From the IMG/VR virus record IMGVR_UViG_3300045988_043056: 43,022 nucleotides of DNA; one strand, written 5' to 3'. A program made the translations under genes and the position numbers. This DNA is from a virus. Under the pieces are notes generated by a model. It was not told the origin of the DNA and ran no database searches. It was given only the letters and a program-made list of their open reading frames with translations. Of this stretch, positions 5,464-32,180 are shown in pieces; the first letter of the stretch is position 1; every line of letters begins with the position of its first letter.

Positions 5464-5487
5464 GACGAGATTCTTATTTGCTCCGTC

Positions 5488-5508
5488 GTAATATAAAAGT
5501 ATCAAATA
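5488..5508. repeat. 21-bp direct repeat, copy 2
   Basis: Identical to 4959-4979. It lies 14 nt upstream of the -35 element of the next promoter. Confidence 0.9.
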
Positions 5509-5522
5509 TGGTATTTTTACTA

Positions 5523-6762: not shown

Positions 6763-7347
6763 ATGACCGAATACCAGAAGCTGTACCCCAAATTTGAATC
6801 CTACCCCGAGGCCGTCCGTCAGGCAAAGCGTCTCAAGGGCCTCACCATCGACGCGCTGGTCGAATCGGCCGGCGTTTCCTATTCCTCCGTATCCCGCCTC
6901 TGCGACGGCACGCAGCTCGATCCCAAGCTCTATAATTCCGTTGCCCTCTGCAAAGTCCTCGGTCTTTCCATGGACGAGATTTTCGGTCTATCCGCGTCCG
7001 AGGCCAGCGTCGAGGAATTGCAGTCGAAGCTCCACGCCGCCGAGTTGGAAAACGCCCACCTTGCCGAGGAAACCAAGCGTCTGCACGAGGTCAACCGCCT
7101 CCGCGCCGAGCAGCTTGCCGCCCGCGCCCCCGTTATCTATATTCTTCTCTTTGCCTGCGCGCTCCAGTCCTGCGCCTTGATCTTTTATCTGTTCGTCGAT
7201 GCGCAGATCAAGGATGCCGGCCTCATCCGCTTCGGCGATGTCGGCCTTGTCGCGTGGCTTCTGATCTTCCTTGTCCTCTCCGCAACTTCCGCCTGCGTCT
7301 GGGCGACCATGCGCTTCGCCCGTAAATTCAGCAAAAAGGAGCGCTGA
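6763..7347 (+). CDS. Membrane-anchored XRE-type HTH protein (HTH, then coiled coil, then two TM helices)
   Basis: LKGLTIDALVESAGVSYSSVSRLCDGTQ is the HTH. ELQSKLHAAELENAHLAEETKRLHEVNRLRAEQLAA is the coiled coil. VIYILLFACALQSCALIFYLFV and VGLVAWLLIFLVLSATSACVWA are the TM helices. The stop lies 2 nt before the integrase ATG. Confidence 0.8.
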   Translation: MTEYQKLYPKFESYPEAVRQAKRLKGLTIDALVESAGVSYSSVSRLCDGTQLDPKLYNSVALCKVLGLSMDEIFGLSASEASVEELQSKLHAAELENAHLAEETKRLHEVNRLRAEQLAARAPVIYILLFACALQSCALIFYLFVDAQIKDAGLIRFGDVGLVAWLLIFLVLSATSACVWATMRFARKFSKKER

Positions 7348-7349: not shown

Positions 7350-8399
7350 ATGTACATCCCCGATCCGAAAGAAACCCCCTCCGGCTGGCGCATCCAGCTC
7401 CGCATCAACGGCCAGTCTATCCCCGTGCTGGCCGACACGCCCAAGGAGTGCAAGCGTCAGGCCGCACTTATCAAGGCGCAGGCGCAGGCCGCCGGAAAGC
7501 CCGTCAAAAAATGCGACCTCACCCTCTCTCAGGCCATTGATGCCTATATCGCCGAGCGCAGTAACACGCTTTCCCCCTCTACCGTTCGCGGCTATCGCAT
7601 CATCCAGCGCACACGCTTCCAGTCCACCATGCCGCGCGTACTCTCCCGCATCAGCCCCTCCGAATGGCGCGGCATCGTCAATGACGAGCTGGGCATCGTC
7701 TCCCGAAAGACCGTCAAAAACGCATGGGCTTTCATCAAGTCCGTTCTATCTGCACAGGGCATCGACGTTGACAATGCAGTCAAGGTCTCGCAGCCCCGAA
7801 AAAAGCGCGACGCGAACTGGCTGGAGCCGGACGAAATCAAGAAATTTGTCGCAGCCGCCGCAGACGATCCGCTCTGCGTTCCCATGCTTCTGGCCCTTAT
7901 GTCCATGCGTATCTCCGAGATCGATGCGCTCCGCTGGGAGAATATCAACCCCCACGCCGATTTTATCCACACCACCGGTGCACGCATCCGCAATGAGAAT
8001 AACGAGTATGTCCTCAAAGCCGAGCAAAAGAATCTGGAATCCGACCGAAACGTTCCCCTGCTGATTCCCGAGCTTCGCGCGGCCATCCTCCGTGACTGGA
8101 AGCCGGAGGGCAAGGTCCTTTCCGTTTGCCAGACAACCCTTCGCTGCGCGGTCGAGCGCACCTGTGCGCGTGCCGGTGTTCGGCGCGTCACCGTTCACCA
8201 GCTCCGTCACAGCTTCGCCTCCCTTTCCGCGCATCTCCGCATCCCCGCCGAAATTTCCATGGAGATCGGCGGCTGGAACAATGACAAAATCATGAAAGAG
8301 ATTTACACCCACATTGCCCGCTCCGACATTGAGCGCTATAAAAACGAGATGTGGAACTTCTACAACAGTACACCCGCCGCACCGCCCGAAAACGCATAA
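7350..8399 (+). CDS. int: Tyrosine integrase (phage integrase family)
   Basis: An N-terminal SAM-like region is followed by LALMSMRISEIDALRWENI (box I Arg), HQLRHSFASL (HxxR) and GGWNNDKIMKEIYTHI (catalytic Tyr). Confidence 0.95.
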   Translation: MYIPDPKETPSGWRIQLRINGQSIPVLADTPKECKRQAALIKAQAQAAGKPVKKCDLTLSQAIDAYIAERSNTLSPSTVRGYRIIQRTRFQSTMPRVLSRISPSEWRGIVNDELGIVSRKTVKNAWAFIKSVLSAQGIDVDNAVKVSQPRKKRDANWLEPDEIKKFVAAAADDPLCVPMLLALMSMRISEIDALRWENINPHADFIHTTGARIRNENNEYVLKAEQKNLESDRNVPLLIPELRAAILRDWKPEGKVLSVCQTTLRCAVERTCARAGVRRVTVHQLRHSFASLSAHLRIPAEISMEIGGWNNDKIMKEIYTHIARSDIERYKNEMWNFYNSTPAAPPENA

Positions 8400-11375: not shown

Positions 11376-11419
11376 GGGTCACTTAGGGGTCATTTAGGGG
11401 TCACTTGCGGGTCAACTCC
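11376..11419. repeat. 11-bp tandem repeat x4 (GGGTCAYTTRS)
   Basis: GGGTCACTTAG, GGGTCATTTAG, GGGTCACTTGC, GGGTCAACTCC. The last unit overlaps the stop codon (11412-11414) of the giant ORF. Confidence 0.9.
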
Positions 11420-14400
11420 ACGGCATCATCCACCAGTCATAGCTTTTATACTTCTGGCCCATGATCCAGTCCTTCTGTTCTGCGGTCAGGCTCAGGCTGT
11501 CGATCAGCTCGATGACCTTTTCTCTCTTGCTGCCGGAAATAAACTCTCCGTCCTCGTCCCTGTCGGATTCCAGCTCCGCTTGAGCCAGCCAGAACTTTGT
11601 GTACTCCTTTGCTGGGATTCCTGCCTCGTGAGCCTCCTTGAACTTCTCCGCCGTTCCATCGGAATAGATTGCACACAGCGCTTTATAGGCTTCATTTTCG
11701 GAAAGTCCCGCCTGCGCAACAGCTCTGGCCTGATATGCCTCCGAAAAGTTCTTTCCATCAGCTTTTGCGGCCTTGCGGGCAATTTCCTCTATCTTTATTG
11801 CGCTGTTTTTCCCAACGCCCGCTGCGGTCATTTTGTTGTAGAAGCTCGCGGATTGCGGCACGAGCGCCTCGTTGATCGCCTCTCGGTTCTTCCCGGAATA
11901 CTTCTTTCCGTCCAACCAGCTTGCAAACTCCGCCGCCCATTCGCTTTCGGTCTTTCCCGCTTTCAGCTCGCCGCGCTTGTCGAGGATTTCGGAAATATTT
12001 TTCCACTTCATCCCGGCGTCGAGCAGCTTGTCAATCGCGTCGTTTTTCCCGCTTTCGACCATCGCGCTGTAGATTCTCATTCTCTGCCCGTCGGTCAGAC
12101 CCTCCTGCGCTGCCAGCTCGGCGCGTGCCTTTTTGCGGTGCTCCTCCTTCTGCTGCAAGCGCTTTGCCTTTTCCTCTTCGCTCTCGTCGTCCTTTGGCTC
12201 CGGTATGTCGGAGTAATTCATTGCATCGTCCATCCGCATCATCAGGCCGTAGAGCGCATACCCGTTCACGCCCTCGTCCCGCAGCTCTTTCCAGAGTTTC
12301 GTCTGGTCGGCATTCAGCCCGTAGCTGTCCCCGGCATAATACCGATTCGCCTCCGGTGTCGCGTTTGTCCCGAACAGCACCGTCCGAATATCGTTCCACA
12401 CATTGTCCGTGTCCAGCGCGTAGAGCAGCCGTTCGTTATCTCCGTATCCCTTGGTTTTTCCTCCCTGCGCGATTGCCTTAATGCCGTACCCGGTTTTCTT
12501 GGCCTGTCTGCCGCCCGGAACCAGCTCTGCAAGGAACTCCAGCCCCTTCTCCAGCACTTCCTGTCCATTGGCGCTTTTGCCGTTTCCGGGAAACAGCGCA
12601 TCATAGAAGTTTTTCCCGGTTCCGAAGATGTTCGGGAACGGCATTGACCGGTCGCCCACACCCAGCAGTCCGGAAAGATTCGAGGCAAACGGGATCTCGT
12701 TCATCAGGTTGTAGCCCGTGTCCTTGATCGCCGCCGACGTGTCAAATCCTTCCTTCGGCTTCTGCACGTCGAAGATTTCCGAGCCGACCACCTTGTTGAT
12801 AAGGTTCTTGATGTAGTCATTCGTCGGCAGCCCCTTGCCGGATGCAAAGAAGTTTGCCGTCAGTCCGGCAATGTCCAGCGGTGCAGGCGTGCCGCCGTAA
12901 AGCTCATCCGTCAGCCGGTTCAGCACGAACGCCGCAATCAGGTACCCGAAGATCGTCCGCAGCAGCATTCGCGCCGCGCTTTTCTTTCCGTGCTCTCTGG
13001 CCTCCCGCTTTATCTCCAGCGGCATGTCCTGCGTGACAAACTCCACCGTGTTCAGCGGCTCGATCTGGAACACGTTCAGCATTTGCACCACAACGCCCTT
13101 GCTGTGGAACTTCAGCGGCTTTGCCCCCTTCGTCCGGTCTCCCATCAAGGCTCTGCCGTACCAGTCTGCAAACCGCATGGCCTCCTCGTGGCTCTTCCCG
13201 TTGCGGATCGCGTCCCAATAGGCCGCACGTGTCGCGATGGTCGAGAGCATCGAATCCATAAATTCCGCCGGTGCAAACATGCCGGAAATGAACTTATCCG
13301 TCCCGCTCTGCACCAGATAGTCTATTCCCTTCTTTCCGGTCAGGAAGTCGATCTCTTTTCGGAATTCCCCCAGCTTTCCCGTGCAGAACTCCTGTGTCGC
13401 TTTCAGGATCGCCCGCTGGCTTCTCGTGGCCTGAAGCATCGCAAGCTGGGCGCTCTGGTTCAGCACCGAGGAGAGGTTTCCTGCAACATTGGCCTTTGCA
13501 AACGCGCCGACCAGTTTGTTTCCGATGTTCAGCCATTCGCGCCCGCCGCCGTACTCCGTGCCTCTGTCGCCGCCGAACTGCTTCCCGGCCAGAATGTCGC
13601 CGTAGTTTTTCAGCCATACGACCAGCGGAGAATATCGCGTCTTGTTTGTTTCTTCCCCAACCAGCTCGGAGATCAGCCGGTCGAACACCTGCATCATTTC
13701 CGCATCGGATAGGTCGTAGTCGTCTGCCCCGATCTGCCCCATTTCCTGCAAGTATTCGATCTTTTCCTCTGCGTCCGAGCTTCGGCTCATGTCGATTGCC
13801 TTTTGCAGATCGTCCACGAAGTTTCCGCGCAGGCCCTTGCGCAGATAGCTTTCCGCCGCTCGTACCTTCTGGATGTCGTCTGTGTGGAACAGAATGTCGC
13901 TGAGATACTGCACATAGCTCTGGAATGCCTCCTCGATGTCATAGGCCGTCTTGTCGGTCTTACGTTCCAGCAGGAACGGGTTCCATCTTCTCTGCGGCCG
14001 GAATCCCTCCGTCCGTCCGGAGATCTCCGCGGGCAGTGTCGTCACGGTCTCGTTCAGGCCCAGCACTTCAAGCGCCTTGCTCATTAGGTTGAACTTTTCC
14101 GCCAGAGGCATATGCGGCGTATACCCTTGGATCCTGCCGATGGGCTGCATTCCGTGCGCCACGAGGAAATCGTTGATTGCCTCAAAATACAGGTCGAATT
14201 TTTTCCGGTATTCCTGCATCGCGTTCTCGCATTTCTTCTTGTCGATGCCCTCGGTGTCCTTTCCGTTGATCCACTGCGCATATTTCTCAACGATTTTCGC
14301 TTCCTCGCTGTTCAGCGCAAATTCTATGGTCTCGTTGGAAATGCTTTCGCCCTTGGCCACCTTCTTGGCCGCGTCCTTCAGGATGTCGCCTCTGTCGCTG

Positions 14401-17400
14401 CGCTCCGCCTTTTCCACATATCCTTCCACGTCCAGCATCATGTGCACATAGGCGCGTTCGGTCTCGTTCAGGCGTGACTTCTTCCCGCTGCTGTCTGTAA
14501 ATTCCTTCACGTCGTCAAACTGCTGATTCGTCCAGCGGTAGCTCTCCGCCGTGTTTCGGATGACCGGCGCGAACAGATAGTTGTAGATCTCCATGCCCCG
14601 TTCTTCTCCGAAGATATTCACCATCGACCGCAGCGCCGTCCGGTAGTTCAGCACCAGCAGCTTTTCCGCCTTGAACAGCTCCGGGTTTGCCATGATCTCG
14701 TTTTCCGTCGGGAAAAGCTCCATCATCTTGTAGAACAGGCCGTCGCGGATCTCGCTCTTGCGCACTTGGATCAGATCCTCTCCGGTCATGCGCTCGTTCA
14801 GGTACAGGGCAGAAAGCTGCGAGACAACCTCCGGCCGGCACTTGTCCGGCAGCCTGTAATACTCCTGCTTCCCCTGCGCGATTTTTTTCGCTGCGCGGAT
14901 CTCCTGTTTTGTCGCCTCCATCCGCTGGATGGTCTTGTCGATCTGCCATTTCACGCTCCTGCGCGTCTCCGCGCCCTTGCGCATGGTTTCCACCTGACCG
15001 TAGTCCGCGATTCCGCCGTCGATCTTCACGCCCGCCTTTTCCAGTGCCGGAGAACCCTTGAAGTTCTCTTTTGCAATGCCTTCCGGATGCACGCCCGGAA
15101 TTTGCTGCCCATAGGTTTTCTTGGCCGCCTCCAGTCTCTCAAGCGCTTCTTTGGGGCTGATGCTCGTTTTCGGCGCGGGATCTTTCGTCATGGTCGCTTT
15201 CCATGTGCCGTCTGCATTGTTGGTCAGTGCCCACTTGGTTCCGGTCATCGCCTGCAAGAGGCTCAGTGCCTCGCCCGGCTGCAAGGTCGTGAATCTGGAC
15301 TGCATCGGTCTGTCCTTGCCATACGGCAGCTTCGGCTCCGTTGTCCCGAAGCTCTCAAGATACGCCTTTCGGATTCCCTCTATGCGTTCCGCCTTTTTCT
15401 GCTCGTAGGCTTCCTGTTCCTCCAGTGCACTCTCCCCGCGCTGCTTTTCGATCTCCTGCGCGGCCTGTCTTGATTTCTCCGCACGTTCCTCCGCCACCGG
15501 CCGCAGATCGTTTGTCTCTCTGCCCTCCGTCTGGCCGTCGTACCACTCGTAGAATGCCCCGAGATCCTCTGCGTCCGCCGCGTCCTCCAGCTTCTCCGGC
15601 GGCATACTCGCAAGCAGAGCCGCCGTCTCCTGCACGCTCGGCTGATATTTCGGCTCCACCGCCGTCAGCAGCTTCGTCTCCATGTCCTTCACGCTGGAAA
15701 GGCCGGTCTCCTTGTTCGTGAACAGCACCGTGAGCATGCCCTTCTTCGTGCTCTTGTCCAGCACAAGGCCGTAGTTGCCCATGTCCGCCGCCTTGACCCA
15801 CGTCCGCAGGGGATACACCTGTTTCCCGTTCAGGAAGGGGAAGCCGCGCTTCTGCGCCGCCGCCTCCGAGATCGTCCACGGCTCCACAACGCCCTCGGCC
15901 TTTTTCGTCGGCTGCACGCCGTCGGCCTCTCGGAGGATTGATTCCAGCCGCTCGTCCGTTTCCGTTCTTGCCCGCGCTTCTCTCGCCTCCGCGCCTGCCT
16001 GCTTTTCGTACCGGTTCAGCAGCTTTTCAAATTCCTGCCTCTGGTATTCCAGCTGCTCCTCCCGCTTCAGTCCGAAGCGCTTTTCGTTTTCCTCCATGGC
16101 CTGCCGGTAGGGCAGCTTCGTGTCCATGCCCTTGTCGGCCATGTCCTCCATGCGCCGCAGCATTTCCGTCATGTCATAGGTGCCCGGGAATGCCCCCGGG
16201 TACTGCTCCGCCAGCTCCTTGTAAAGCTGGTCGATGCCCTGCTTGCCCTCGTCCTCCACAAAGTAGAACTTGTGCCGTCCCATGGCGCGCTTCTTAAAGC
16301 TGTTCCAGTCGTCCCCGAATTCCGTCCTGACCCACTCCGGCACGAACACCTTCTGCCCGTAGATCGTGTCGCGGATTTCTCTGTAATAGTCGTCCGCTGG
16401 CATCGTCTCCGTCCCAAGGTTCATCACCGCCTCAAACAGGTCGTCCTTTTCCGCCTTCAGCAGCTTCACGCCCTGCTGCATTTCCAGCATCGGCGTTTCC
16501 AGCAGCCCGTTTAATTCCTTGCTGTCATAGCTCTGGATGTTGAAAAGCCTCCGCATGCCGCTTGTCAGGTCGCGCTTGTATCGCTCCTGCGCCTTTTCCT
16601 TCTCCTGCTCCAGCTTTTCTTGCGCGGCGGTCAGCTTGTTTTCCGCCCGCTGCACCTTTTCCTCCGGCGAGAGAGAAAACCGCTTCTTCGGCTCCAGCAG
16701 CTTTTCGGCATCTGCCTCGGCCTCCTGCCGCGCCTGCTCGTTTCCGGCCCTGTATTCCACCACGTTCAGGCCGTTCATTTTCAGCCTTTCCACAAGCCAC
16801 CAGTCCACGCTCGACGGAATCACCGCTGCCATGTTCTCAAGGTGCGCGTTGTTGTTCCGCGCATCCTCGTTCTTCACGATCAGCGACACGTCGCCCGCGC
16901 CCTCGGTGTTCGTCAGCAGCTCCTGCACCGGAATCCGCGCCGACCCGTACAGCACCTCAAGATCATCCTCGTTCAGATTCCGAATGGTCGTGAGATTTTC
17001 GTTGCCTGTTTCTTTGGTCTCCTGCAAGAATTCAGAAAATTGCTTTCCTGTTATGTTGACATTCTTCCCTCGGTATGTTATACTACCAATGTAGCCGCTA
17101 GGTGGAAGGGAACCGGGACGTAGTTGCAAGCCCGTGGAACGAAGGAGCCTGGCGGCTCTTTTTTTATCCACAAACATTGCCTCGCTGTTTTTCAGAAAAC
17201 CTGCCGGGTTTCCTGTTTTTACATACGCGCTGACGACCTTCTGCATGTCCTCAATCAGAAGATTTCCTTCCACTGGCCTTAAATCCAGCACAGCCAGCAT
17301 GGGTGCGCCATTTGTATTCTTCATGCTGCCAAACACGACCACGCGGCTGTTCCCTCTTTTGGAATCCGATTGTCTACTTTTCAGTACCAGCACCGGATCG

Positions 17401-20400
17401 TTCAGCACGCTCGGTATCTTCTTGATTTCCTCTAGCGACATTTCCGGATGCTGCTTGAGAATTGTCTCGATTTTCTCGCTGCGCATATATACATCGCTCT
17501 CAATCGCTCCAAGTCCTTGCAGCACTTCTCCGGTACTCCCCAGAATGAAATCTGTCTTTCTTCTTCCGTCTGCGTCCCACTGAGTTATTGCCTCTGCAAA
17601 CCCTTCCGGATTATCAACGGAAAGCTGTACTTTCGATGTTCCTTCTCCGTCCTCCGTCAGCAGCGCTCTGTTCCATCCAAGGTCTGGCATTTTGTTTTTC
17701 CGTTCCTCTGCGGTCAGGTTCCGGCGGCTGGCCGTTTCTCTCGCCTCGATCTCTCCTGCGGAATTGATGTACTGCCCCAGATAGACCTCGCCGGGGTTTT
17801 CCATCTGCCGTTTCAGATCGATCAGCTTTCCGAACCACTCGTTCGGATAGAGCTTTTCATAGAGTCTGTCGTGCTCTGCGTCCATCCGGTCGTATTTCTC
17901 AGTGTCACCCGGCTTTTCGGAGTAGAACAGGCGCTCCAGCTCCCCGTCGATCTCCTGATAGCGGATATAGTCGTTCTGTTCTTCCTTTGTCAGGCCGTTC
18001 AGAATGTCGCTGTACTCCCGCTGCAAGCGCTCCTGCAACCTGTCTCCGCTTTCATAGTCGCGCCGCGCCCAGTATTCCGGGCTTGTCCCGCCCTGGAAGC
18101 CCTCGTATTTCTGGATGATGTGCTGAATCTCGTGCAGCAGCGTCTCCGGCCCCTTGCCGAACAGGCTGTCGGAAAGAACAATGGCATTGCTTCTCTTGTC
18201 AAACTTTCCCTTCACGCCGGGATCCAGCTTTTCAAAGCGCAGCGTCGTGTGCCGCAGCAGAGGATACGCCTCATAGAGTTCGTCGTGCTTCAGGAAATCC
18301 TGAAGCTCGTATTTTTTCTCCCATACCCTGTCGCTGTATTCCTCCTGAAGCGCTTCCATTTCCGCTTCCTCTGCCTCTGTCAGCGGTTCTCCGCCCTTTT
18401 CAAAGCTGTCGCCCCATTTGTCTGTCAGTTCTTCCAGTCTGCGGTATCTCGGCTCGCCCAGCAGCCTTGCGTCCCCGTTCGGTCGGAATTCCGCCTTGCT
18501 GTCGTCCACCTCAAACCGCCACTGGCCGTCCGCACCGCGAATCCATCCGGTTTTCCGCCAGATTTCCTCTCGGCTTGCGCCGTCCTCCTCCATGGCCTCC
18601 GCAAGCGCAAGGTTTTTGGAGCTGGCCGTCTTGGCCTTCGGGCCTGCCATACTCGCCCTTTTGCCGCCCTCTCGGGCGGTTTTTTCGTTTCCGTCGCTGT
18701 CCTGCGTCCGGCGCACGGCCTGTGAGACCTCTGCCGTCGGTGCGTTGCTCTCCCGCTGGCTTTGCATGCCGGCCGCATGCGTCCGCATTGCGTCGATCAG
18801 CTTCTTGAAGCTCCGATTGGCAAAGCGGTTCAGCCCCGCATAGGCGTCGGCCAGAATTTCCTCATAGACCGCCGTGTCGCTGTCATATGCCCCTCGGTAC
18901 GCCTTCATGTACTGCTCGACGATCTCGGTGTATTCCTCCGCCGTCATGTTTTCGCTCACGCTTTCCAGCGCCGTGACAAGGTCGATCTCCGCCGCGTGCA
19001 CCTTGGCGTGGAAAAGCTCATGCTCCATCAGCACCTCCGGCTCGTAGATGCTCGAAACGCTCACGAAAATACGCCCGCTTTCCGCATCAAACATCGCGTC
19101 CGTGTTGTGGTACTCTCCGTCCTCGCCCTTGATGGACATCGTGCCCACCACGAAGGTCGTTTTCACGCCCTGCTCCTTCGCCTCGCGCTGTGCCTGCTTC
19201 ATGGCCTGCGTGTACTTCCGCACCGGCACGATCCCGACCATCACGTCAGGGTCTCCGTCTGCGGTCAGTTTGTCCATGCCGGTGTCCAGCACGGTGCCCT
19301 TGAAGCGCTCTACTCTTTCGTTGAGCTTCTGCCGGCGAAGATTTTCGCTTTCATTTCCTCCAGCTTCGCCCGTTCCTCCTCTGTCAGCGGCGATTCGTGA
19401 TCCGCTTTCGACCACGCCGCCAGTCTGTCCCTCGGCACCCACACGCTCATTCCGCTCTTGGTTTTCATTAACACTCTGGGATTGCTCATTGCTCATTCCT
19501 CCTTCGGTTTCCTGCGCCGCCGGCGCATTGATTTCCTCTGCCTGTTCGACCGTCGCTGCCGCGCTCTGGTCGGTCTCCTGCGCCGCCTGCGGCGTTTCCT
19601 GCGCGGTTTGCTCTGCGGTCGGTATGTTTTCCTGTGCTGCGCTTTCTGCGGCTCTCTGCGCCCTCTCTGCGGCTCTCGCGCTCTTTTCCGCGTCCAGCAC
19701 GTCCAGATAGCTCTGCGCAGATTCCGCCACGAAGATATCCGTCGCATCCGTGCTGCCGCGCAGGGCCTCTATGGTCGCCCGCTGCGTGATGATCTGAATA
19801 TCCAGCGCACGGTCTGTCATCAGCGCCGCATTGCTCTGCTGCTCTGCGCGGATGATGTTCTGCATCTCCACGTCCACAAAGCCGCCGTTCGCCTGCGGCG
19901 GCGTGTACCGCTCGAAGCTCTCCGAGATATTCTGTGCGCTTTCCAGACGGTCTGCCAGCGTGTTGAACTCCCGCACGATGGTGTTCCACTCGCCCTTGGC
20001 TTTCTTGATCTGGCTCTCGCTCCATCCGTTGAAGCGCATCAGGTTTTCGTCGCCTGCATAGTATTGCGCCGTGTACTGCGCCATGGTGCCGTAGAGCACG
20101 TCCAGATTGCTCTGCGCCTGCTTGCCGAAGCGCGTGATCACCTTCGACTGCACATAGCTTTTCGCTCTGGCCGTCAGGTCCACAATGTCCTCCGGTGCGC
20201 TCATGACCATGGAAAGCAGCACGCCCACGGTAAACTCGTCCACCAGCTCTTTTGCCGTCAGGTCGGTTTCGCCCGTCAGCGCGTAGTCCAGCGCCGCGCC
20301 CGCAACGGCCGAGGCCACCTCCTCCATGCCTTCGCCGATGCGGTCGAACACCTTGCTCGATACGATCTTCCGGATGGTCTCATTGTCTGTCAGGTCGGTG

Positions 20401-22691
20401 ATATATTTGGAGATCAGCCCCGCATTCTCCGGGTCAACAATCGGGTTGCCGCCGAACAGTCCGTTCGTCCCGTATTCGATCAGGCCGCCCGCGATCAGCT
20501 TCACGGCCCGCTCCGGCATGCTCTTTCCCGCGTCCTCCGCTTCGCCGTAGCTGTTCAGCGCCGCGTTGGCCGAGATCAGCACGTTCGAGCTGTTTTTCAT
20601 CAGGTTCGCCATCTGTCCGGCAAACTTCGTGTAGCCGCTCACCCTTTTCTGTGCATTGGCAAGGCTCGAAGCGTACTTTCCCCCTTGGGAAAGCTGCGAG
20701 AGCGCCGTGTTCCCCGCGCTGATCTGCCCGGCTATCGCGCCCGCTGCGGCCATCTCCAGCGCCGCCTGCGTCAGGTCGCGCGTCATGTTCGCCGTGAACT
20801 TTGTGAATTTGCTTCCGTTCTGCGTCAGCTCCGAGGCGTACCGTCCCGCCTCGTACTCTCTCTGTTTTCCCGCCTGCCAGTCCTTGTTTTCGTAGTCTAT
20901 GCCCTGCTGGCCGCCCTCAACGAAGTAGTTTCCCACCGGATTTTCCGCAAGGCCGAACAGATTCAGCGTCTTGCCTGCCGCCTTTGTGAGATAGCCGAGG
21001 CCGCGCATAAGCACCTGCTCCATGCCGCCCGCGTATTTGGTCATCACATTTTCCATCGCGTTTACCGCGCCGGTTCCCGCCATGTCCGCATAGGTCTTTT
21101 CGTCGATCTTCCGGTACATTTCCAGTGCCGCCTGCATTCCGGCTTCGTTCGCGTTCAGGCCGTTTGCCTCTCTGGTCGCCCGCAGCTCTGCGGCATTCGG
21201 CGCGTCCGCAATCTGCTGCATGAATGCGTCATACTGCTCCTGCGTCATTTCCGTGTTGGCCAGATACTCCGGCAGCACCTCCTCGCTCAGGAACGTCACC
21301 GCTCTTCGCTCCGCGTCCGAGGTTCCCCAGTCTGTTCCGCCGTGGTCAAAGCCCATCTTTCCCAGCAGTTCATCCACCGGCGTGTATGCGATGTTCTCCC
21401 GCGTCAGATTTCCGCTCTGATACCGGAATTCCTTCATCGCGTCGCCCTTGCTCGGCAGCAGGCTCTTTGCCTCCTTGCGAATGTCGTCTATGCCGGAATT
21501 TGCCCACATCATGTCGGATTTCGGCAGGCCGGAAAGATACTCCTTCTTCCACTGCTCCACCTTGTCCAGCAGCGCCTCGTATTCGCTCTCCGTGCACTTC
21601 CCGCTGAGCGCAAGGTAATTCAGACGTTCGGCGATCTCCGTAAAGATTCCCGCGTGAATGTTCTGCGCCTGACTGTCCGACACGTCTCCGTGCGTGAATG
21701 CCTTCAGCTCCTCGAAGTCCTGCCGGATGTAGTCCTCGTGCTGCTGCACGGTCTGGTTCTGCCAGTCCGCCTTTTCGGCCTTTCTCTCCATGCCGGCCGC
21801 AAGCGTGCGTTCCTCCTGCTGGCCTAACCGGCGGTCGTAGGCCGAGCCGTATCCGGTCTGCACCTTCCCGTCCGCCGTGTATCGCGGCAGACGCATTCTT
21901 CCGCTGATCGCCACGTCCGGCATGGCCTTTCCGGTCAGCGGATTCGTAAGCTGTGCGCCCTTCGCGCTCGTCTGCATGTCCTCCAGTGCTTTCCGGTACT
22001 CCGCCATCTGCGTCATGAGCGTCTGCGCCGCAGGCGTGTTTTTCTTCTTCAGGTAAGCTTCGATCTCCTGCGCCTCGGTCAGGAGCGTCTGCGCCCCGCT
22101 GACCCACTGGTTCGCCCGCTCCGGCTCCGACATCCCCGCCGTGGTCTCCTGCGCCTTTTTGAAGTACGCATCCGCCTCCGTCTGGAACCGCGCAATGCCG
22201 CTTCCGAGCGCCAGACTGCCCTCGTCGTCCTCTTGTCCGTTCATTGCCTTCTGGTAGCGCTTGAGCTGCGTCTCCCACGCATTGAGCTGCTTCTGATAGC
22301 TCTGCGCGTCCTCGCCCATCACGTCCGCATAGCGGTTGAAGTAGTCGCGCTCCTTCTCCACGGCGCTGAGCATTGAGCGAACGCGCAGCTTGTAGCCATC
22401 GTTTCCCGAGCCTGCGCGATGTGCCTTGCTGAAGTAACCGTCCATTGTGCCGAACAGCGTTCCCATGTCCGTCTGCATCTGCGACCATCCCGAGGCGCTC
22501 ACGCAGCGCTCACGCTCTGCTTTCAGTGCATTTGCTTGCTGGCTCTGCATCTGCGCTTCATTTTTTCTGTACTCCGCCATGGTCGCCGGATAAGAAAAGC
22601 CGCCGGAGACCGCAGGGGTGTTCCCTGCGGTCTGCCGGTTTTCTTCTTGCTGCTTTCTGTATTCAGCCATTGTTTTCGGGTAGTTCATCAT
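11412..22691 (-). CDS. Giant 3,759-aa multi-domain virion-type protein (polyvalent-protein-like)
   Basis: A single open frame with ATGATG behind AGGGAGGAAAT. HExxH motifs lie at nt 19008-19022 (VLMEHELFHAKV) and nt 18120-18134 (LLHEIQHIIQKYEGF). A polyvalent-protein module lies at ~nt 17140-17600 (ILGSTGEVLQGLG...LNDPVLVLKS...VSAYVK...FVDKKR). A hydrophobic helix lies at nt 12911-12968. The ORF sits after the portal and a 341-aa protein. Confidence 0.85.
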   Translation of the reverse strand: MMNYPKTMAEYRKQQEENRQTAGNTPAVSGGFSYPATMAEYRKNEAQMQSQQANALKAERERCVSASGWSQMQTDMGTLFGTMDGYFSKAHRAGSGNDGYKLRVRSMLSAVEKERDYFNRYADVMGEDAQSYQKQLNAWETQLKRYQKAMNGQEDDEGSLALGSGIARFQTEADAYFKKAQETTAGMSEPERANQWVSGAQTLLTEAQEIEAYLKKKNTPAAQTLMTQMAEYRKALEDMQTSAKGAQLTNPLTGKAMPDVAISGRMRLPRYTADGKVQTGYGSAYDRRLGQQEERTLAAGMERKAEKADWQNQTVQQHEDYIRQDFEELKAFTHGDVSDSQAQNIHAGIFTEIAERLNYLALSGKCTESEYEALLDKVEQWKKEYLSGLPKSDMMWANSGIDDIRKEAKSLLPSKGDAMKEFRYQSGNLTRENIAYTPVDELLGKMGFDHGGTDWGTSDAERRAVTFLSEEVLPEYLANTEMTQEQYDAFMQQIADAPNAAELRATREANGLNANEAGMQAALEMYRKIDEKTYADMAGTGAVNAMENVMTKYAGGMEQVLMRGLGYLTKAAGKTLNLFGLAENPVGNYFVEGGQQGIDYENKDWQAGKQREYEAGRYASELTQNGSKFTKFTANMTRDLTQAALEMAAAGAIAGQISAGNTALSQLSQGGKYASSLANAQKRVSGYTKFAGQMANLMKNSSNVLISANAALNSYGEAEDAGKSMPERAVKLIAGGLIEYGTNGLFGGNPIVDPENAGLISKYITDLTDNETIRKIVSSKVFDRIGEGMEEVASAVAGAALDYALTGETDLTAKELVDEFTVGVLLSMVMSAPEDIVDLTARAKSYVQSKVITRFGKQAQSNLDVLYGTMAQYTAQYYAGDENLMRFNGWSESQIKKAKGEWNTIVREFNTLADRLESAQNISESFERYTPPQANGGFVDVEMQNIIRAEQQSNAALMTDRALDIQIITQRATIEALRGSTDATDIFVAESAQSYLDVLDAEKSARAAERAQRAAESAAQENIPTAEQTAQETPQAAQETDQSAAATVEQAEEINAPAAQETEGGMSNEQSQSVNENQERNERVGAEGQTGGVVESGSRIAADRGGTGEAGGNESENLRRQKLNERVERFKGTVLDTGMDKLTADGDPDVMVGIVPVRKYTQAMKQAQREAKEQGVKTTFVVGTMSIKGEDGEYHNTDAMFDAESGRIFVSVSSIYEPEVLMEHELFHAKVHAAEIDLVTALESVSENMTAEEYTEIVEQYMKAYRGAYDSDTAVYEEILADAYAGLNRFANRSFKKLIDAMRTHAAGMQSQRESNAPTAEVSQAVRRTQDSDGNEKTAREGGKRASMAGPKAKTASSKNLALAEAMEEDGASREEIWRKTGWIRGADGQWRFEVDDSKAEFRPNGDARLLGEPRYRRLEELTDKWGDSFEKGGEPLTEAEEAEMEALQEEYSDRVWEKKYELQDFLKHDELYEAYPLLRHTTLRFEKLDPGVKGKFDKRSNAIVLSDSLFGKGPETLLHEIQHIIQKYEGFQGGTSPEYWARRDYESGDRLQERLQREYSDILNGLTKEEQNDYIRYQEIDGELERLFYSEKPGDTEKYDRMDAEHDRLYEKLYPNEWFGKLIDLKRQMENPGEVYLGQYINSAGEIEARETASRRNLTAEERKNKMPDLGWNRALLTEDGEGTSKVQLSVDNPEGFAEAITQWDADGRRKTDFILGSTGEVLQGLGAIESDVYMRSEKIETILKQHPEMSLEEIKKIPSVLNDPVLVLKSRQSDSKRGNSRVVVFGSMKNTNGAPMLAVLDLRPVEGNLLIEDMQKVVSAYVKTGNPAGFLKNSEAMFVDKKRAARLLRSTGLQLRPGSLPPSGYIGSITYRGKNVNITGKQFSEFLQETKETGNENLTTIRNLNEDDLEVLYGSARIPVQELLTNTEGAGDVSLIVKNEDARNNNAHLENMAAVIPSSVDWWLVERLKMNGLNVVEYRAGNEQARQEAEADAEKLLEPKKRFSLSPEEKVQRAENKLTAAQEKLEQEKEKAQERYKRDLTSGMRRLFNIQSYDSKELNGLLETPMLEMQQGVKLLKAEKDDLFEAVMNLGTETMPADDYYREIRDTIYGQKVFVPEWVRTEFGDDWNSFKKRAMGRHKFYFVEDEGKQGIDQLYKELAEQYPGAFPGTYDMTEMLRRMEDMADKGMDTKLPYRQAMEENEKRFGLKREEQLEYQRQEFEKLLNRYEKQAGAEAREARARTETDERLESILREADGVQPTKKAEGVVEPWTISEAAAQKRGFPFLNGKQVYPLRTWVKAADMGNYGLVLDKSTKKGMLTVLFTNKETGLSSVKDMETKLLTAVEPKYQPSVQETAALLASMPPEKLEDAADAEDLGAFYEWYDGQTEGRETNDLRPVAEERAEKSRQAAQEIEKQRGESALEEQEAYEQKKAERIEGIRKAYLESFGTTEPKLPYGKDRPMQSRFTTLQPGEALSLLQAMTGTKWALTNNADGTWKATMTKDPAPKTSISPKEALERLEAAKKTYGQQIPGVHPEGIAKENFKGSPALEKAGVKIDGGIADYGQVETMRKGAETRRSVKWQIDKTIQRMEATKQEIRAAKKIAQGKQEYYRLPDKCRPEVVSQLSALYLNERMTGEDLIQVRKSEIRDGLFYKMMELFPTENEIMANPELFKAEKLLVLNYRTALRSMVNIFGEERGMEIYNYLFAPVIRNTAESYRWTNQQFDDVKEFTDSSGKKSRLNETERAYVHMMLDVEGYVEKAERSDRGDILKDAAKKVAKGESISNETIEFALNSEEAKIVEKYAQWINGKDTEGIDKKKCENAMQEYRKKFDLYFEAINDFLVAHGMQPIGRIQGYTPHMPLAEKFNLMSKALEVLGLNETVTTLPAEISGRTEGFRPQRRWNPFLLERKTDKTAYDIEEAFQSYVQYLSDILFHTDDIQKVRAAESYLRKGLRGNFVDDLQKAIDMSRSSDAEEKIEYLQEMGQIGADDYDLSDAEMMQVFDRLISELVGEETNKTRYSPLVVWLKNYGDILAGKQFGGDRGTEYGGGREWLNIGNKLVGAFAKANVAGNLSSVLNQSAQLAMLQATRSQRAILKATQEFCTGKLGEFRKEIDFLTGKKGIDYLVQSGTDKFISGMFAPAEFMDSMLSTIATRAAYWDAIRNGKSHEEAMRFADWYGRALMGDRTKGAKPLKFHSKGVVVQMLNVFQIEPLNTVEFVTQDMPLEIKREAREHGKKSAARMLLRTIFGYLIAAFVLNRLTDELYGGTPAPLDIAGLTANFFASGKGLPTNDYIKNLINKVVGSEIFDVQKPKEGFDTSAAIKDTGYNLMNEIPFASNLSGLLGVGDRSMPFPNIFGTGKNFYDALFPGNGKSANGQEVLEKGLEFLAELVPGGRQAKKTGYGIKAIAQGGKTKGYGDNERLLYALDTDNVWNDIRTVLFGTNATPEANRYYAGDSYGLNADQTKLWKELRDEGVNGYALYGLMMRMDDAMNYSDIPEPKDDESEEEKAKRLQQKEEHRKKARAELAAQEGLTDGQRMRIYSAMVESGKNDAIDKLLDAGMKWKNISEILDKRGELKAGKTESEWAAEFASWLDGKKYSGKNREAINEALVPQSASFYNKMTAAGVGKNSAIKIEEIARKAAKADGKNFSEAYQARAVAQAGLSENEAYKALCAIYSDGTAEKFKEAHEAGIPAKEYTKFWLAQAELESDRDEDGEFISGSKREKVIELIDSLSLTAEQKDWIMGQKYKSYDWWMMPWS

Positions 22692-22705
22692 ATTTCCTCC
22701 CTGCT

Positions 22706-23731
22706 TTATCGGTTTTCATCCCATCGGCCTGTATAACGACCTGACCCCGGTGTCTTTGTGTTTGGCTTTTTGGTGTATATCTTTTCACGGTTATTCTTTG
22801 CATTTTCGTACCCGCCGTTGTAGCTGTTTCCGCCGTAGGTCGTCATGGTCTTAAGCCACTGCAAGAGTTCCTCCTCGTCATATCCAAGGTCGCCCCAGCT
22901 CCGGATATCCTGAATAACAGATTCCGGGCCGTACTTGTTTGCTTTCTTCAGCAGCGTCTGCCGCACATCGTCGCCCACGGTCTTTAATTTTCTGCTGCTC
23001 GAGCTTCCCCCTCCGGAGTAGCTTCTCGAGTACGCCGCGCTCTGTGCTGCCGATGCGATTTTCTGCGCGTCTCCCGCCGAGATTCCCGCCGCCGCCAGAA
23101 GATCGCTTGATGGCATCTGCCCGTTCTGCAGCAGCGTCAGCGCCAGCGTGTAGGAGTCGCTTCTTGCCTGCTGCTCCTTCTGCCAGGCGAATTGATCCTC
23201 CTGCATCTTCCTGCTCCACTCCTGATAGGCCTGATCCGCCGTCTGCGCGCCCACCTGCACGCCGAGGATCTGCGCCACGCGGTCGTCCGCTGCGCCCAGC
23301 TCCTTCCAGCGCGTCATGGCCGCATCGATCTGCTGCTGGTAGAGGCTCGGCAGCGTCTCTGCAAGCTTGCTTTTCTGGTAGTCTGCCGCCTGTGAGGCCG
23401 CTGCCACCGCCTGCGTCGAGGGGATGCCGCCCGTCATCGTCGCGTACTGTCCCAGTGTGTCGCGTCCGGTTCTGTCCGCTTCCCGCAGATACGCCTTTTT
23501 GTAGGCCGAGATCACGTCGTCCCCCAGCAGATAGTCCACCGTCGATTTCTGCGTTCCCATCACCTTGTCCAGCTCCGCCGCATAGGGGCTGACCCCCTGC
23601 GCCGTGGGCTGCGCCCCCGTCACGCTGTTCAGCTCCGCCACATACGGATTTGTCGGCTGCGTCTGCTGCACGTTCAGCAGCTTTGCCAGCTCCTCGGCTG
23701 ACAGCTTCGTATAGTCAATTTCGTTTGCCAT
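22706..23731 (-). CDS. Hypothetical virion-module protein (341 aa)
   Basis: It lies between the portal and the giant ORF. It is helical and A/Q-rich with an S/G-rich linker (YSRSYSGGGSSSSRK). I see no motif I can name. Confidence 0.6.
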   Translation of the reverse strand: MANEIDYTKLSAEELAKLLNVQQTQPTNPYVAELNSVTGAQPTAQGVSPYAAELDKVMGTQKSTVDYLLGDDVISAYKKAYLREADRTGRDTLGQYATMTGGIPSTQAVAAASQAADYQKSKLAETLPSLYQQQIDAAMTRWKELGAADDRVAQILGVQVGAQTADQAYQEWSRKMQEDQFAWQKEQQARSDSYTLALTLLQNGQMPSSDLLAAAGISAGDAQKIASAAQSAAYSRSYSGGGSSSSRKLKTVGDDVRQTLLKKANKYGPESVIQDIRSWGDLGYDEEELLQWLKTMTTYGGNSYNGGYENAKNNREKIYTKKPNTKTPGSGRYTGRWDENR

Positions 23732-23734: not shown

Positions 23735-25822
23735 TTAACCTCCCATCTCCGTCGGCTTCTGCATCGCCATTTGTGCCTGCATCATCAGCATCTGCTGCTG
23801 AAGCTGCTCCTCTCTGCGCTGCTCCATCAAGGTCTTGATCTTACCCGCACCCGGGAAATGATCCTCCTCCATCTTCGTCCAGTATAGGATCAGCGTGTCA
23901 ATGCTGTTCGGGTCTCCGAAAGCGCCGGACTGCAGGTGCGCCGTGGTCTCCTGCCACATCGCCTCGCGGTTCGTGGCAAGGCCGGACGCATCGTCGCAGG
24001 AGAACAGGAATTGGTCGTTCCAGTAAAGCTCCCCGGCATCGTCCATTCTCAAAAATGCGTAGGAATTCCATTCCTCGTATTCCTGATTGCCCTTCTCGTC
24101 CCGGAAGCGCAGCGGCCGCTTCTCTTCGCAGTATGCCAGTTGGTTTTTGAACATCCGCTCGAAGATTCGCGCATACGCCGCTTTCTTCAGCACGCGCTTA
24201 CTCTCCAAGCGTCCCGCCGACTGTGCTGCCGCAAATTCCTTTGCCTTGCCGGACTGCGCCGTCGGGTCTGTCCGTCCCTGATAGCTGTCCGTCATGCCGA
24301 TCAAGCGTCTGGATTCCTCGTAGGCCTGCGTCAGCATCGCCATGTTCGGGGTGATGTCCGCCTGAAAGTCTCTCACCGCGATCAGGCTTGCATCCGCTGC
24401 ATTGCCCACATACCAGATGCCGTTGTCCTGCGGGTCAACTCTCAGGTGCGTCGAATCCGGCAGTGTGATCTTGCTGCCCGCCTTCATCAGCCGGTCTATG
24501 GTTTTCTGCTCCAGGCGGTTGATGGTGTTCTGCTGGTCTGCGATCTTGTCGCAGTCCGATTCGCCTAAGAATTTTCCGTGCGCCGTGACGTTCCGCCGCA
24601 GCACCGCCATGAAAATATCCGGCTTATAATACGGGATTTCGATTTCCTCGTCTCCCTGCTCCTGCTCTGTCGGCAGTTCCTGCGCTGCCGGTGGCTGCAT
24701 TTCCGGCGTCGGCATTGTCTGCATCGCCGGAACCTCCTGCGCGCCGAGGCTTCCCATCGGCTCCTGCTCCGTCGGCATTCCCGTCGGCTCCTGCGGCATT
24801 GCCTGTTCTTCCGGCTGGTAGAAGATTCTCCCGAATCCGTGCTCCGCTCTCAGCCGCTCCACGATCATCGGGTCAATGCCCAGCGTGTCCAGCTCACTCA
24901 GCCGCACCCTGCGCGAGGTCTCCACCACGTCCTCCCAGCTTCTCGACCCGCAGAACGAACACACGCCCTTTCTCGGCTTCCGCTTCTCTGCATCGTCCGG
25001 GTATGTTCCGTCCTGCGTCGGCTCGCTCAGGTCTATGTATGCGCTGTCGGCTTCGGTCTGTCCGCACTTCTTGCAGCGCCGCAGGATGCGTGCCTGGCAA
25101 TCCTTCAGGTCCTCAACCTCCATATCGCCCACCCACGCAAAGCGGCCAATGCCGCCCTCGTCGTTCCGGTATTCCGCGATCTTCAGCGTGACCACGTCCT
25201 CGGCGTTGCTTTCCTCCGCACCTCTGACCTCCGGCATTTCCTCCTGAAGGTCTCCCACGTCTACGCCGTAGCGTCTGCGCAGATAGTCCTTTGTCACCGG
25301 AATCAGCCAGAAGTAGTAGGCCATTTCGTCCACTTCCTTCACGCCGTCCTGCGGTATAAACTGCATTGGGTGGACGCATTTCAGCGTGTTCTCGCCCACG
25401 GTCGTGTGCGTCCGCTTGCTCGTGTCCCACTCCGGCAGATACAGGCAGCCGCCCTGCTTGTAGGTGATGCGCTCGGATTCGTCGTTCAGCTCCTCCGTCG
25501 GCAGCCGGTCCAGCTCGTTTCGCAGCATGTTTTCGATCATCCGCGCCAGATGCTCGTCCTCGCGGCGCATCGGCGTGACCTTCGGCATCGGGATAGAGCT
25601 GTCGATCTCCGATTCGATGTTTTCTGCCGTGATGTTCCAGACGTGGCTTGTCTCCTTCTGGTATCCGTACTTTCTGTCGTTTTCCGTCAGCGGTGTCAGC
25701 GTGCGGTCGCCCGCATACTGCGCTTCGCGCCGGTGCATTCTTTCGCGCTCTGCCTCGTAGGCCGTCAGGTTCTTTTCCAGCCTGCTCTGCCACAGGCTCA
25801 CGCCGTCTTTTCTGTCTTTCAT
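23735..25822 (-). CDS. Portal protein (with a Zn-ribbon and P/Q/E-rich insertion)
   Basis: 695 aa, immediately downstream of TerL. The size and position are typical of a portal. CKKCG...CSFCG lies at nt 24944-25075. The low-complexity run QPEEQAMPQEPTGMPTEQEPMG...QELPTEQEQGDEE follows it. Confidence 0.75.
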   Translation of the reverse strand: MKDRKDGVSLWQSRLEKNLTAYEAERERMHRREAQYAGDRTLTPLTENDRKYGYQKETSHVWNITAENIESEIDSSIPMPKVTPMRREDEHLARMIENMLRNELDRLPTEELNDESERITYKQGGCLYLPEWDTSKRTHTTVGENTLKCVHPMQFIPQDGVKEVDEMAYYFWLIPVTKDYLRRRYGVDVGDLQEEMPEVRGAEESNAEDVVTLKIAEYRNDEGGIGRFAWVGDMEVEDLKDCQARILRRCKKCGQTEADSAYIDLSEPTQDGTYPDDAEKRKPRKGVCSFCGSRSWEDVVETSRRVRLSELDTLGIDPMIVERLRAEHGFGRIFYQPEEQAMPQEPTGMPTEQEPMGSLGAQEVPAMQTMPTPEMQPPAAQELPTEQEQGDEEIEIPYYKPDIFMAVLRRNVTAHGKFLGESDCDKIADQQNTINRLEQKTIDRLMKAGSKITLPDSTHLRVDPQDNGIWYVGNAADASLIAVRDFQADITPNMAMLTQAYEESRRLIGMTDSYQGRTDPTAQSGKAKEFAAAQSAGRLESKRVLKKAAYARIFERMFKNQLAYCEEKRPLRFRDEKGNQEYEEWNSYAFLRMDDAGELYWNDQFLFSCDDASGLATNREAMWQETTAHLQSGAFGDPNSIDTLILYWTKMEEDHFPGAGKIKTLMEQRREEQLQQQMLMMQAQMAMQKPTEMGG

Positions 25823-32178: not shown

Positions 32179-32180
32179 GC

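Follow-up and report, generated by a model that had tools for sequence, protein, structure and literature searches.

The 43,022-nucleotide viral DNA stretch held in IMG/VR as record IMGVR_UViG_3300045988_043056 (the whole of which is called the window here) carries on its minus strand, at 11412-22691, a single giant open reading frame (ORF) that begins with ATG in the ORF listing and comprises 3,759 sense codons plus a stop. Its product, a protein of 421 kDa with an isoelectric point of 5.1, is the subject of this analysis and is interpreted below as a probable phage polyvalent protein. A Shine-Dalgarno sequence, GGAGG (22696-22700, minus strand), lies 4 nt 5' of the first ATG (22691-22689), a second in-frame ATG (22688-22686, minus strand) lies 7 nt 3' of GGAGG, and the translation contains no internal stop. 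Nucleotides 1-55 of the window repeat nucleotides 42966-43020 exactly, which shows that the window represents a complete genome of ~42,965 bp assembled as a circle; the giant ORF takes ~26% of it. The initial annotation of this DNA had described one uninterrupted 3,759-codon frame with a ribosome-binding site and ATG, filling about a quarter of the genome and lying two genes downstream of the portal; frame, size and position (in the order TerL, portal, a 341-amino-acid (aa) gene, giant ORF) were all borne out, and the strand, which it had not given, is minus.

The exact protein is recorded in JGI/IMG as a "hypothetical protein", and its 90% cluster there holds two further, independently assembled versions, one of 3,762 aa from a contig of 40,224 bp and one of 3,758 aa from a contig of 42,980 bp. 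An exhaustive HMMER search, for which the first 1,100 aa served as query, recovered a full-length collinear relative (P0154, 3,745 aa, 88.7% identity) and two diverged giant relatives of 3,397 and 3,277 aa, in which the ends are the same and the centre is variable. Stop-to-stop frames of 2,739-3,199 aa with the same C-terminal module (the C-module, described below) were found in six Oscillospiraceae/Clostridia genomes. The ratio of non-synonymous to synonymous substitution rates (dN/dS), calculated per 250-codon segment between the giant ORF and four related loci, was 0.07-0.5 in every segment in at least one comparison, indicating that every part of the giant ORF is coding and under purifying selection.

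These observations bear on whether the single frame might be an artefact of mis-assembly, or two or three neighbouring genes fused by chance, as could be suspected from relatives in which the gene is called in pieces (1067+59+2606 aa in locus L003, 1470+1125 aa in L002, and 519+/780/1769 aa in L004). In L003, whose DNA is 98% identical over the head genes, the gene is split by a 2-bp deletion in a low-complexity linker, at an A-rich site that corresponds to about position 19625 of the window, and homology to the giant ORF runs on across the frame change; because the split product is present on three contigs, it is regarded as a natural variant. The breaks in L002 and L004 lie at other positions, and the variation in break points among relatives thus points to independent lesions of an ancestrally single gene. 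Together with dN/dS values below 1 in all segments and the recurrence of the same design in the 3,277-3,397-aa relatives and the stop-to-stop frames, this leaves the artefact a negligible probability. The frame, which the initial annotation had allowed might prove to be split by frameshifts or stops, is intact in four independent assemblies (3,745-3,762 aa), and these exclude an artefact for practical purposes. Just downstream of the L003 frameshift site, at 19480-19500 (aa ~1066-1070), an internal AAGGAGG is followed by an in-frame ATG (…ETEGGMSNEQ…); it could let translation restart in split variants, though the spacing is only 1 nt.

Domain anatomy and the constant scaffold

All parts of the giant ORF are given here from the N-terminus of its product with their minus-strand coordinates. 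The N-terminal extension (aa 1-310; 21762-22691) is variable: relatives P0155 and P0158 align to the giant protein only from aa ~311-348 on, and dN relative to L003 is 0.196 in the extension and 0.003 in the next segment. It contains three copies of the sequence MAEYRK, at aa 8, 38 and 229 (22571-22670 and 21987-22007), each in a Y-P-x-T-MAEYRK or similar context. A conserved N-scaffold (aa ~310-1000) follows, containing a G/A-rich N-core (aa ~650-915; 19947-20744), and leads into an acidic Q/E/T/A low-complexity linker (aa ~1000-1110; 19362-19694), the site of the L003 deletion, which over aa 1001-1100 consists of 21% A, 19% D+E and 13% Q, has no aromatic residues and carries a net charge of -12. 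Beyond it lie a gluzincin-type putative metallopeptidase, HExxH-1 (aa ~1120-1310; 18762-19334); an LPD23 domain (aa 1347-1402; 18486-18653; Pfam PF18838, E = 4.3e-22, 78 bits against a Pfam cut-off of 27); a weakly DUF6782-like HExxH-2 block (aa ~1403-1690; 17622-18485) with the motif H1520-E1521-x-x-H1524; and a MuF_C/PBECR-type predicted RNase (aa 1741-1846; 17154-17471; Pfam PF18819, E = 1.2e-14, 54.7 bits against a cut-off of 27.6). MuF_C and ~250 further aa make up a low-GC exchangeable cassette (aa ~1652-2101; 16387-17735). The unassigned region at aa ~1900-2450 (15342-16994), coiled-coil-like with small beta-rich stretches, has no Pfam match and is absent or diverged in P0155 and P0158. 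The protein ends with the alpha-helical C-module (aa ~2450-3759; 11415-15344), which contains a hydrophobic helix (aa 3239-3257; 12921-12977), then an invariant N-R...E-x-Y-G-G-T-P-A-P motif, and finally a helical-repeat tail with a near-invariant ...PW end.

Much of this layout had been foreseen by the initial annotation, whose acidic Q/E/T/A linker, two unrelated HExxH modules (motifs at aa 1224 and 1520, without mutual similarity), single strongly hydrophobic helix and helical-repeat C-terminus (seen in an AlphaFold2 model) were each recovered. It had seen no MuF signature, and here it needs correction, as Pfam does detect the MuF-related MuF_C domain; for the N-terminal MuF domain there is no Pfam match at E <= 0.1. 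Its statement that most of the sequence matches nothing nameable still applies, since ~2,600 of the 3,759 residues have no match in Pfam, PHROGs, NCBIfam or the PDB. The whole protein gave no match in PHROGs or NCBIfam and low-complexity noise only against PDB sequences. No lysozyme, transglycosylase or CHAP domain was found in it by Pfam, and no RNA polymerase module by Pfam, NCBIfam or PDB sequence search. Against GenBank phages, megablast returned no match and tblastn only sparse, distant ones, and no internal repeat or second copy of any segment of the giant ORF occurs within the window.

Eight residues of HExxH-1 (H1224, E1225, H1228, Y1261, E1277, E1278, D1282 and A1283) are invariant in 11 diverged homologues, down to 19% identity, and form the signature HExxH...EExxxDA, the gluzincin pattern described for the metallopeptidases of polyvalent proteins (Iyer et al., PMC5512222). 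In its AlphaFold2 model (pLDDT 83-93) a helix, a beta-sheet, the HExxH helix and further helices succeed one another, a predicted topology that fits a zincin-like, putative metallopeptidase. HExxH-2 always follows LPD23, is conserved in the homologue alignment and is modelled at pLDDT 75-97; its similarity to Pfam DUF6782 (E = 3e-4, 20.6 bits) is below the cut-off of 27, and relatives carry PF20573, the family of HExxH-2, in precomputed annotation. From this weak likeness to DUF6782 it is likewise a putative metallopeptidase. Pfam gives no match to a zincin-like metallopeptidase (MPTase) domain. MuF-C has been classed as a PBECR metal-independent RNase whose active forms carry His and Ser/Thr (Iyer et al., PMC5512222); His1748 and Ser1821 are conserved in all aligned homologues that cover these positions (12/13), matching that active-site rule.

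Homologues were sought with three segments of the giant protein in a database of 5.8 billion proteins. The C-module search (aa 2651-3759) returned at least 379 homologues, mostly of ~1,800 aa, in which the C-module forms the C-terminal 1,000-1,200 residues. Relatives of the C-module come almost exclusively from gut Oscillospiraceae and other Clostridia, cultured isolates included; among the cultured carriers are Oscillibacter sp. MSJ-31 (L018) and the Oscillospiraceae isolates CM74B_53B and CM710M_45 (L012 and L013). An alignment of 47 members contains 47 invariant columns, among them an HTDD-type motif and YGGTPAP, and the helix at aa 3239-3257 is hydrophobic in 83% of the 47. AlphaFold2 models the C-module as almost wholly helical (pLDDT 71.8, pTM 0.55), with a helical-repeat array at its end. 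Neither a sequence profile nor Foldseek (best E = 1.0) found a relative of the C-module in the PDB; in the Foldseek searches there, neither the C-module model nor the model containing HExxH-1 had a match at E < 0.3. Against BFVD, which holds predicted viral structures, the same C-module model gave 50 matches at E < 1e-3 (best 1.6e-47), for which the empty PDB result serves as a control. All 50 are C-terminal segments of very large proteins of uncultured phages, and the partners are named for LPD3, ART-PolyVal, nuclease, MuF-C, LPD38, methylase, helicase and zeta toxin. We interpret the C-module as a carrier component shared among phage polyvalent proteins.

The N-core was found at residues ~185-460 of most of the ~1,800-aa members by a local iterated profile (E ~1e-38 to 1e-68, mostly ~1e-64 to 1e-68), and the family design is therefore N-core, slot, C-module. 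What stays constant across this large family, which is found in Oscillospiraceae prophages, is the N-core and the C-module; these parts amount to ~2,000 aa and have no match in Pfam, PHROGs, NCBIfam or the PDB. With a C-module that bears both YGGTPAP and HTDD, and an N-core upstream of a variable slot, the giant protein belongs to this family and is its longest member seen in these searches. Judged by its sequence, it is an expanded form in which several effector modules stand in series behind an N-terminal extension.

The exchangeable slot

The domains that lie N-terminal to the C-module differ among homologues, the slot being filled by LPD3, PBECR3, PBECR5, MuF_C, ddrB-ParB, ART-PolyVal, ADPrib_exo_Tox or LPD23. 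The closest view of such a difference is given by two prophages at the same chromosomal site (L036 and L037), 95-98% identical over 25 kb, in which a clean replacement of ~700 nt (L036 11286-12028, L037 11286-11968) puts PBECR3 (aa 434-626) in the place of LPD3 (aa 434-644), a change of ~200 aa. In L003, an LPD3 module replaces aa 1693-1896 of the giant protein, the site of MuF_C. These comparisons indicate that the region between N-core and C-module is an exchangeable effector slot. The cassette of the giant ORF has a GC content of 0.546-0.552, as against ~0.60 in its flanks. Exchange reaches further, since dS relative to L003 jumps from 0.02-0.1 (aa 251-1500) to 1.3-2.7 over aa 2501-3250, which indicates that the C-module has also moved between lineages.

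A copy of the cassette was also found outside any giant gene. In L002 (14522-15871) and L004 (13819-15166), an orphan cassette 92% identical to aa 1652-2101 (window 16387-17735) lies just beyond a tyrosine integrase as two small ORFs, and the giant gene of these loci holds a different module of ~258 aa at the cassette position. In L002, one set of direct repeats, of 89 nt (93%) and 290 nt (98%), flanks both the slot and the orphan cassette, and the 3' end of the integrase falls within a third, collinear repeat of 199 nt. The orphan copy of L002 could be a cassette store or a decayed duplicate. An attP inside the giant gene could likewise be considered for the fragments near recombinases in L001, L002 and L004; a decayed second copy or segmental duplication fits the triple repeat of L002 at least as well.

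Fragments of polyvalent genes were repeatedly seen beside recombinase genes. In a bacterial genome (L001, 10001-11692), a 563-aa fragment with MuF_C, 98-100% identical to aa ~1640-2000, has the remnant of a transposase on one side and, on the other, the serine recombinase that belongs to an unrelated prophage. A candidate junction or cleavage motif at module borders, [FY]-S-[LIVT]-[DESN], was rejected as a general feature because it is not enriched in 146 family proteins (68 observed, 59 expected from shuffling); related sequences occur at aa 1346, 1690 and 2005 of the giant protein, the latter two near recombination break points.

Genome context and phage type

Only the 341-aa gene stands between the portal and the giant ORF, which is co-oriented with TerL, portal, capsid, the 'internal virion protein' gene and TerS. 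In the direction of transcription, the minus strand encodes a replication initiator (37271-38155), TerS (36302-36901), a collagen-like tail fibre of 629 aa (34468-36357; Pfam Collagen at aa 449-501), small lysis-type genes, an endolysin with CHAP and PG_binding domains (32467-33249), two conserved genes without assigned function, the capsid (29483-30493), a 624-aa 'internal virion protein' (27343-29217; phrog_511), TerL (25832-27505), the portal (23735-25822; phrog_156, E = 5.8e-32), the 341-aa gene (22706-23731), separated from the giant ORF by a gap of 14 nt, the giant ORF itself and five small conserved genes. On the opposite strand from these late genes, a tyrosine integrase (7350-8399) is preceded by a helix-turn-helix (HTH) gene (6763-7347) and a gene with an RNase-like NYN domain (5677-6348). 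A C-5 cytosine DNA methylase is encoded at 41949-42806; together with the NYN gene it adds to the candidates for counter-defence or regulation that lie outside the giant ORF.

Both conserved neighbours recur with the family. Homologues of the 341-aa gene lie upstream of the giant gene in L007, L009, L020, L024, L030 and L033; the protein has no family match, and a PDB sequence search gave no meaningful match. Homologues of the 624-aa protein, for which a PDB sequence search likewise gave nothing meaningful, lie near family members in L007, L008, L020, L024, L030 and L033. Genes of 626 and 627 aa stand directly upstream of the giant-gene homologue in L036 and L037, their resemblance to the 624-aa gene being one of size and place only. 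In these two loci the giant-gene homologue comes last in the prophage, after the lysis genes.

Profile searches of the entire genome detected no tail tube, sheath, chaperone, distal tail, baseplate or tape-measure gene. The phage is temperate and belongs to gut Oscillospiraceae. Its late-gene order is unusual in that ~9 kb comprising the tail fibre, lysis genes and capsid separates TerS from TerL (25832-36901, minus strand) and in that the capsid gene lies upstream of TerL and portal.

Several repeats were recorded elsewhere in the window. A 47-nt repeat, 79% identical between its copies at 32054-32100 and 36910-36956 and ending in CCCCCCGAGTTACTTCCA, lies immediately 5' of the minus-strand starts of TerS and of a 302-aa gene or the small ORF upstream of it, and is a candidate shared late promoter or leader. 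A 41-nt AT-rich repeat with the core TAATATAAAAGTATCAAATA occurs at 4949-4989 and again, 529 nt further on, at 5478-5518; both copies lie in the low-GC part of the genome concerned with lysogeny and regulation, close to the NYN and HTH genes, and are possible operator or origin-like sites. A degenerate array in the tail-fibre gene (34820-35031), with alternating start-to-start spacings of 45 and 18 nt, codes for collagen-like Gly-X-Y triplets. Across the circular junction (1-70 and 42936-43022), the 15-nt sequence GCTCTTTCGGCGGCA is repeated in tandem in at least 4-7 copies, a number that the assembler may have collapsed; on the minus strand, one frame would give a putative proline-rich, LPPKE-like peptide repeat.

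A polyvalent protein and its alternatives

Phage-type polyvalent proteins combine many unrelated domains in one chain and are encoded beside portal and terminase genes (Iyer, Burroughs, Anand, de Souza, Aravind, J Bacteriol 2017; PMC5512222). We interpret the product of the giant ORF as such a protein, a carrier scaffold with several effector domains in one polypeptide, and give this reading, including the mechanism outlined next, a probability of roughly 0.6. The initial annotation had proposed the same class by eye, and the proposal is now supported by LPD23 and MuF_C scores above the Pfam cut-offs, by polyvalent domains in the homologues and by the position in the head-gene block. At least two unrelated effector-type domains share the chain (LPD23, MuF_C and two mutually unrelated HExxH modules), and TerL, portal and capsid lie beside the gene on the same strand.

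According to the mechanism we propose, a few copies of the protein would enter the procapsid and, at infection, would accompany the DNA out through the portal and a short tail; the helical scaffold, with its hydrophobic helix, would perhaps help to form or cross an envelope conduit. The effector domains would act in the new host cell, where the two metallopeptidase-like modules may cut the polyprotein into working units and the PBECR domain may cleave host or defence RNAs, and recombination would swap slot cassettes in an arms race with host defences. Packaging into the virion and entry into the host are suggested by analogy and synteny: by the head-block position next to a conserved 'internal virion protein', by the absence of detected long-tail genes, by the fold search, in which the C-module matched the C-terminal portions of many large phage proteins but no PDB entry, and by the three systems compared next, namely the place of AF gp16, the proteomics of phi24B and the LM41 prophages.

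One of these, gp16 of Pseudomonas phage AF (2,213 aa, annotated as hypothetical), shares LPD23 and the HExxH-2 block (aa 1340-1661, 27% identity, E = 3e-12) and is likewise a giant protein, in its case of a podovirus, encoded directly after internal virion protein genes; it differs in carrying LPD22, in the absence of C-module similarity by tblastn, and in belonging to a lytic phage of a Gram-negative host. A literature search for a virion proteome of phage AF, which could tell whether gp16 is packaged, found nothing accessible. Proteomics has found the 2,807-2,811-aa gp47/vb_24B_48 of Stx phage phi24B in virions, and a role in ejection has been proposed for it (bioRxiv 10.64898/2026.04.10.717836). 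It too is a giant polyvalent protein with MuF-C, encoded at the genome end of a temperate short-tailed phage; its other domains are its own (LPD5, LPD1, LPD38), its host is Gram-negative, and only MuF_C aligns (aa 1717-1857 with phi24B 1732-1868, 22% identity, E = 0.003). A shared C-module was considered for gp47 and rejected, as the C-module profile does not match it. Prophages phi1 and phi4 of Clostridium clostridioforme LM41, of ~41 kb, carry an LPD3-like 8-kb ORF and no tape-measure gene, and are predicted podoviruses of a strain whose released particles are, by electron microscopy, mostly podovirus-like (PMC11318856). They resemble the present phage as temperate gut Clostridia prophages with one huge ORF (~20% of the genome) at the 3' end, a likeness by description rather than by comparison of N-core or C-module sequences, and their ORFs encode ~2,700 aa as against 3,759.

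With the class as a whole, the giant protein has in common LPD23 and MuF-C/PBECR, as well as mosaic architectures among orthologues such as those of Helicobacter jhp1044 (PMC5512222); its HExxH modules are candidate versions of the metallopeptidase that is the hub domain of the class. It differs in having no MuF N-terminal domain, no SNF2 or methylase module and no Pfam-defined structural domain, and ~70% of it, N-core and C-module included, falls outside LPD and other Pfam models. The virion RNA polymerase of phage N4 (~3,500 aa) is another giant protein; it is carried in the head of a podovirus, from which it is ejected into the host cell, and the part of it required for encapsidation contains a zincin-like metallopeptidase domain (Iyer et al., PMC5512222). 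In contrast, the protein described here has no detected polymerase domain and is encoded by a temperate genome of 43 kb, that of N4 being 72 kb and lytic.

A number of points count against the polyvalent reading or limit its parts. Virion packaging, ejection, self-cleavage and RNase activity are all steps that we infer, and the short tail of the phage, though probable, is deduced from the absence of matches to tube, sheath, chaperone and tape-measure genes. The C-module has no match in phi24B, the one analogue with experimental evidence of its association with virions, and the single aligning domain, MuF_C, does so at E = 0.003. For the N-terminal MuF domain (Phage_Mu_F) there was no Pfam match on the giant protein at E <= 0.1, nor was the domain found in the 341-aa gene after the portal; by this measure the giant protein is not a member of the MuF/gp7 family. 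The best PDB match to HExxH-1 by Foldseek, jannalysin, is not significant (E = 0.87), and a profile search of PDB sequences with this module found nothing. AlphaFold2 models the MuF_C region at a pLDDT of ~30, too unreliable to place residues structurally. The TM-scores of the Foldseek matches to BFVD are low (0.15-0.43), which is expected for flexible helical models and yet weakens the structural claim, and the natural frameshifted variants indicate that a single polypeptide is not strictly required.

Three other functions have to be weighed against the polyvalent one. The protein might be chiefly a structural component of an ejectosome that penetrates the envelope, for which T7 gp14-16, the P22 ejection proteins and the role proposed for phi24B gp47 offer comparisons, with metallopeptidase-like modules that cut peptidoglycan cross-links rather than acting in cytoplasmic counter-defence. 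The conserved helical scaffold of ~2,000 aa with its one conserved hydrophobic helix would suit such a role, as would the conserved 'internal virion protein' neighbour and the location of AF gp16 within an internal-virion-protein block, and the phi24B authors propose the same role for their own polyvalent protein. The domains found in the family slot, on the other hand, are of kinds that act inside cells (PBECR RNases, ADP-ribosyltransferases (ART) and ParB-like DNA binders), the phage already encodes a separate CHAP and PG_binding endolysin, and Pfam finds no lysozyme, transglycosylase or CHAP domain in the giant protein. The intracellular type of the slot domains and the separate endolysin therefore argue that an ejectosome role is not the whole story, and as a sufficient account we consider it unlikely; it overlaps the polyvalent reading, as the scaffold may do the ejection job too.

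Tape-measure proteins of phage tails sometimes carry peptidase or lysin domains, and G/A-rich helical segments, a long all-alpha C-module and the lack of any other tape-measure candidate in the genome could be taken to mean that the giant protein is a tape-measure or other tail protein of a long-tailed phage with acquired domains. The initial annotation had itself named this as the outcome that would overturn its view, yet no tile resolved to such a protein by Pfam, PHROGs or NCBIfam, and no tube, sheath, chaperone-pair, distal tail or baseplate genes accompany the giant ORF. In L036 and L037, the homologue is located after the lysis genes at the prophage end, outside any tail module, and the comparable LM41 prophages are predicted podoviruses without a tape-measure gene, from a strain whose released particles are mostly podovirus-like. 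Close relatives, moreover, range in length from ~1,860 to 3,760 aa because enzymatic domains have been inserted, which is not the way in which tape-measure length follows tail length, and a tail protein is accordingly very unlikely. We regard as scarcely likely, too, that the gene encodes a superinfection-exclusion or polymorphic-toxin-like protein of the prophage, expressed in the lysogen and not packaged, with swappable toxins directed at competitors or incoming phages. Cassette replacement between isogenic prophages, the orphan MuF_C cassette beside an integrase with matching flanking repeats, the place of the gene at the prophage end in L036 and L037, and the RNase and ART domains, which are classic toxin modules, all speak for it, and with the polymorphic toxins (Rhs/CDI) the family shares conserved delivery parts joined to exchangeable RNase/ART modules. 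In the giant protein, however, the variation lies in the centre and conservation is highest at the C-terminus, which inverts the arrangement of polymorphic toxins; the N-terminus shows neither a signal peptide nor a secretion-system domain; the genes downstream encode conserved small phage proteins, with no obvious immunity gene among them; and the gene is co-oriented and tightly packed (14-nt gap) with late head genes. The delivery vehicle would here be the virion.

A broader proposal goes beyond the polyvalent reading and is advanced only tentatively, as rather improbable at present: N-core and C-module may constitute an undescribed, widespread phage chassis for protein delivery, building a trans-envelope ejection path and carrying one or more swappable slots, of which the 3,759-aa protein would be the multi-slot form. 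If so, orphan cassettes kept beside the integrase and bracketed by slot repeats would let a lineage change its injected weapon by homologous recombination, and the chassis would do in the virion what polymorphic toxin systems do elsewhere.

That prophages of gut Clostridia carry giant ORFs with LPD domains had been noted before, and many relatives are already labelled by LPD or ART domains. What is new is the definition of a constant N-core and C-module, a precise slot whose alleles are swapped in nature, an orphan cassette whose flanks match those of the slot, and a length of 3,759 aa (26% of the genome) that is the greatest seen in these searches. Current understanding is not overturned; rather, the polyvalent concept is extended to a specific family that can be approached experimentally. 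Gut Oscillospiraceae are abundant and hard to culture, and their phages are almost unstudied. The family appears to be the main vehicle by which these phages inject RNases, ADP-ribosyltransferases and peptidases into a new host, and what its slot carries provides a naturally assembled set of effectors that are candidates for countering defence or taking over the host. The ~2,000 aa of constant parts offer a large, well-conserved target for structures that bear on the passage of large proteins through the portal in short-tailed phages of Gram-positive hosts, and the clean swaps between near-identical prophages provide a tractable test of which host factors each effector counters.

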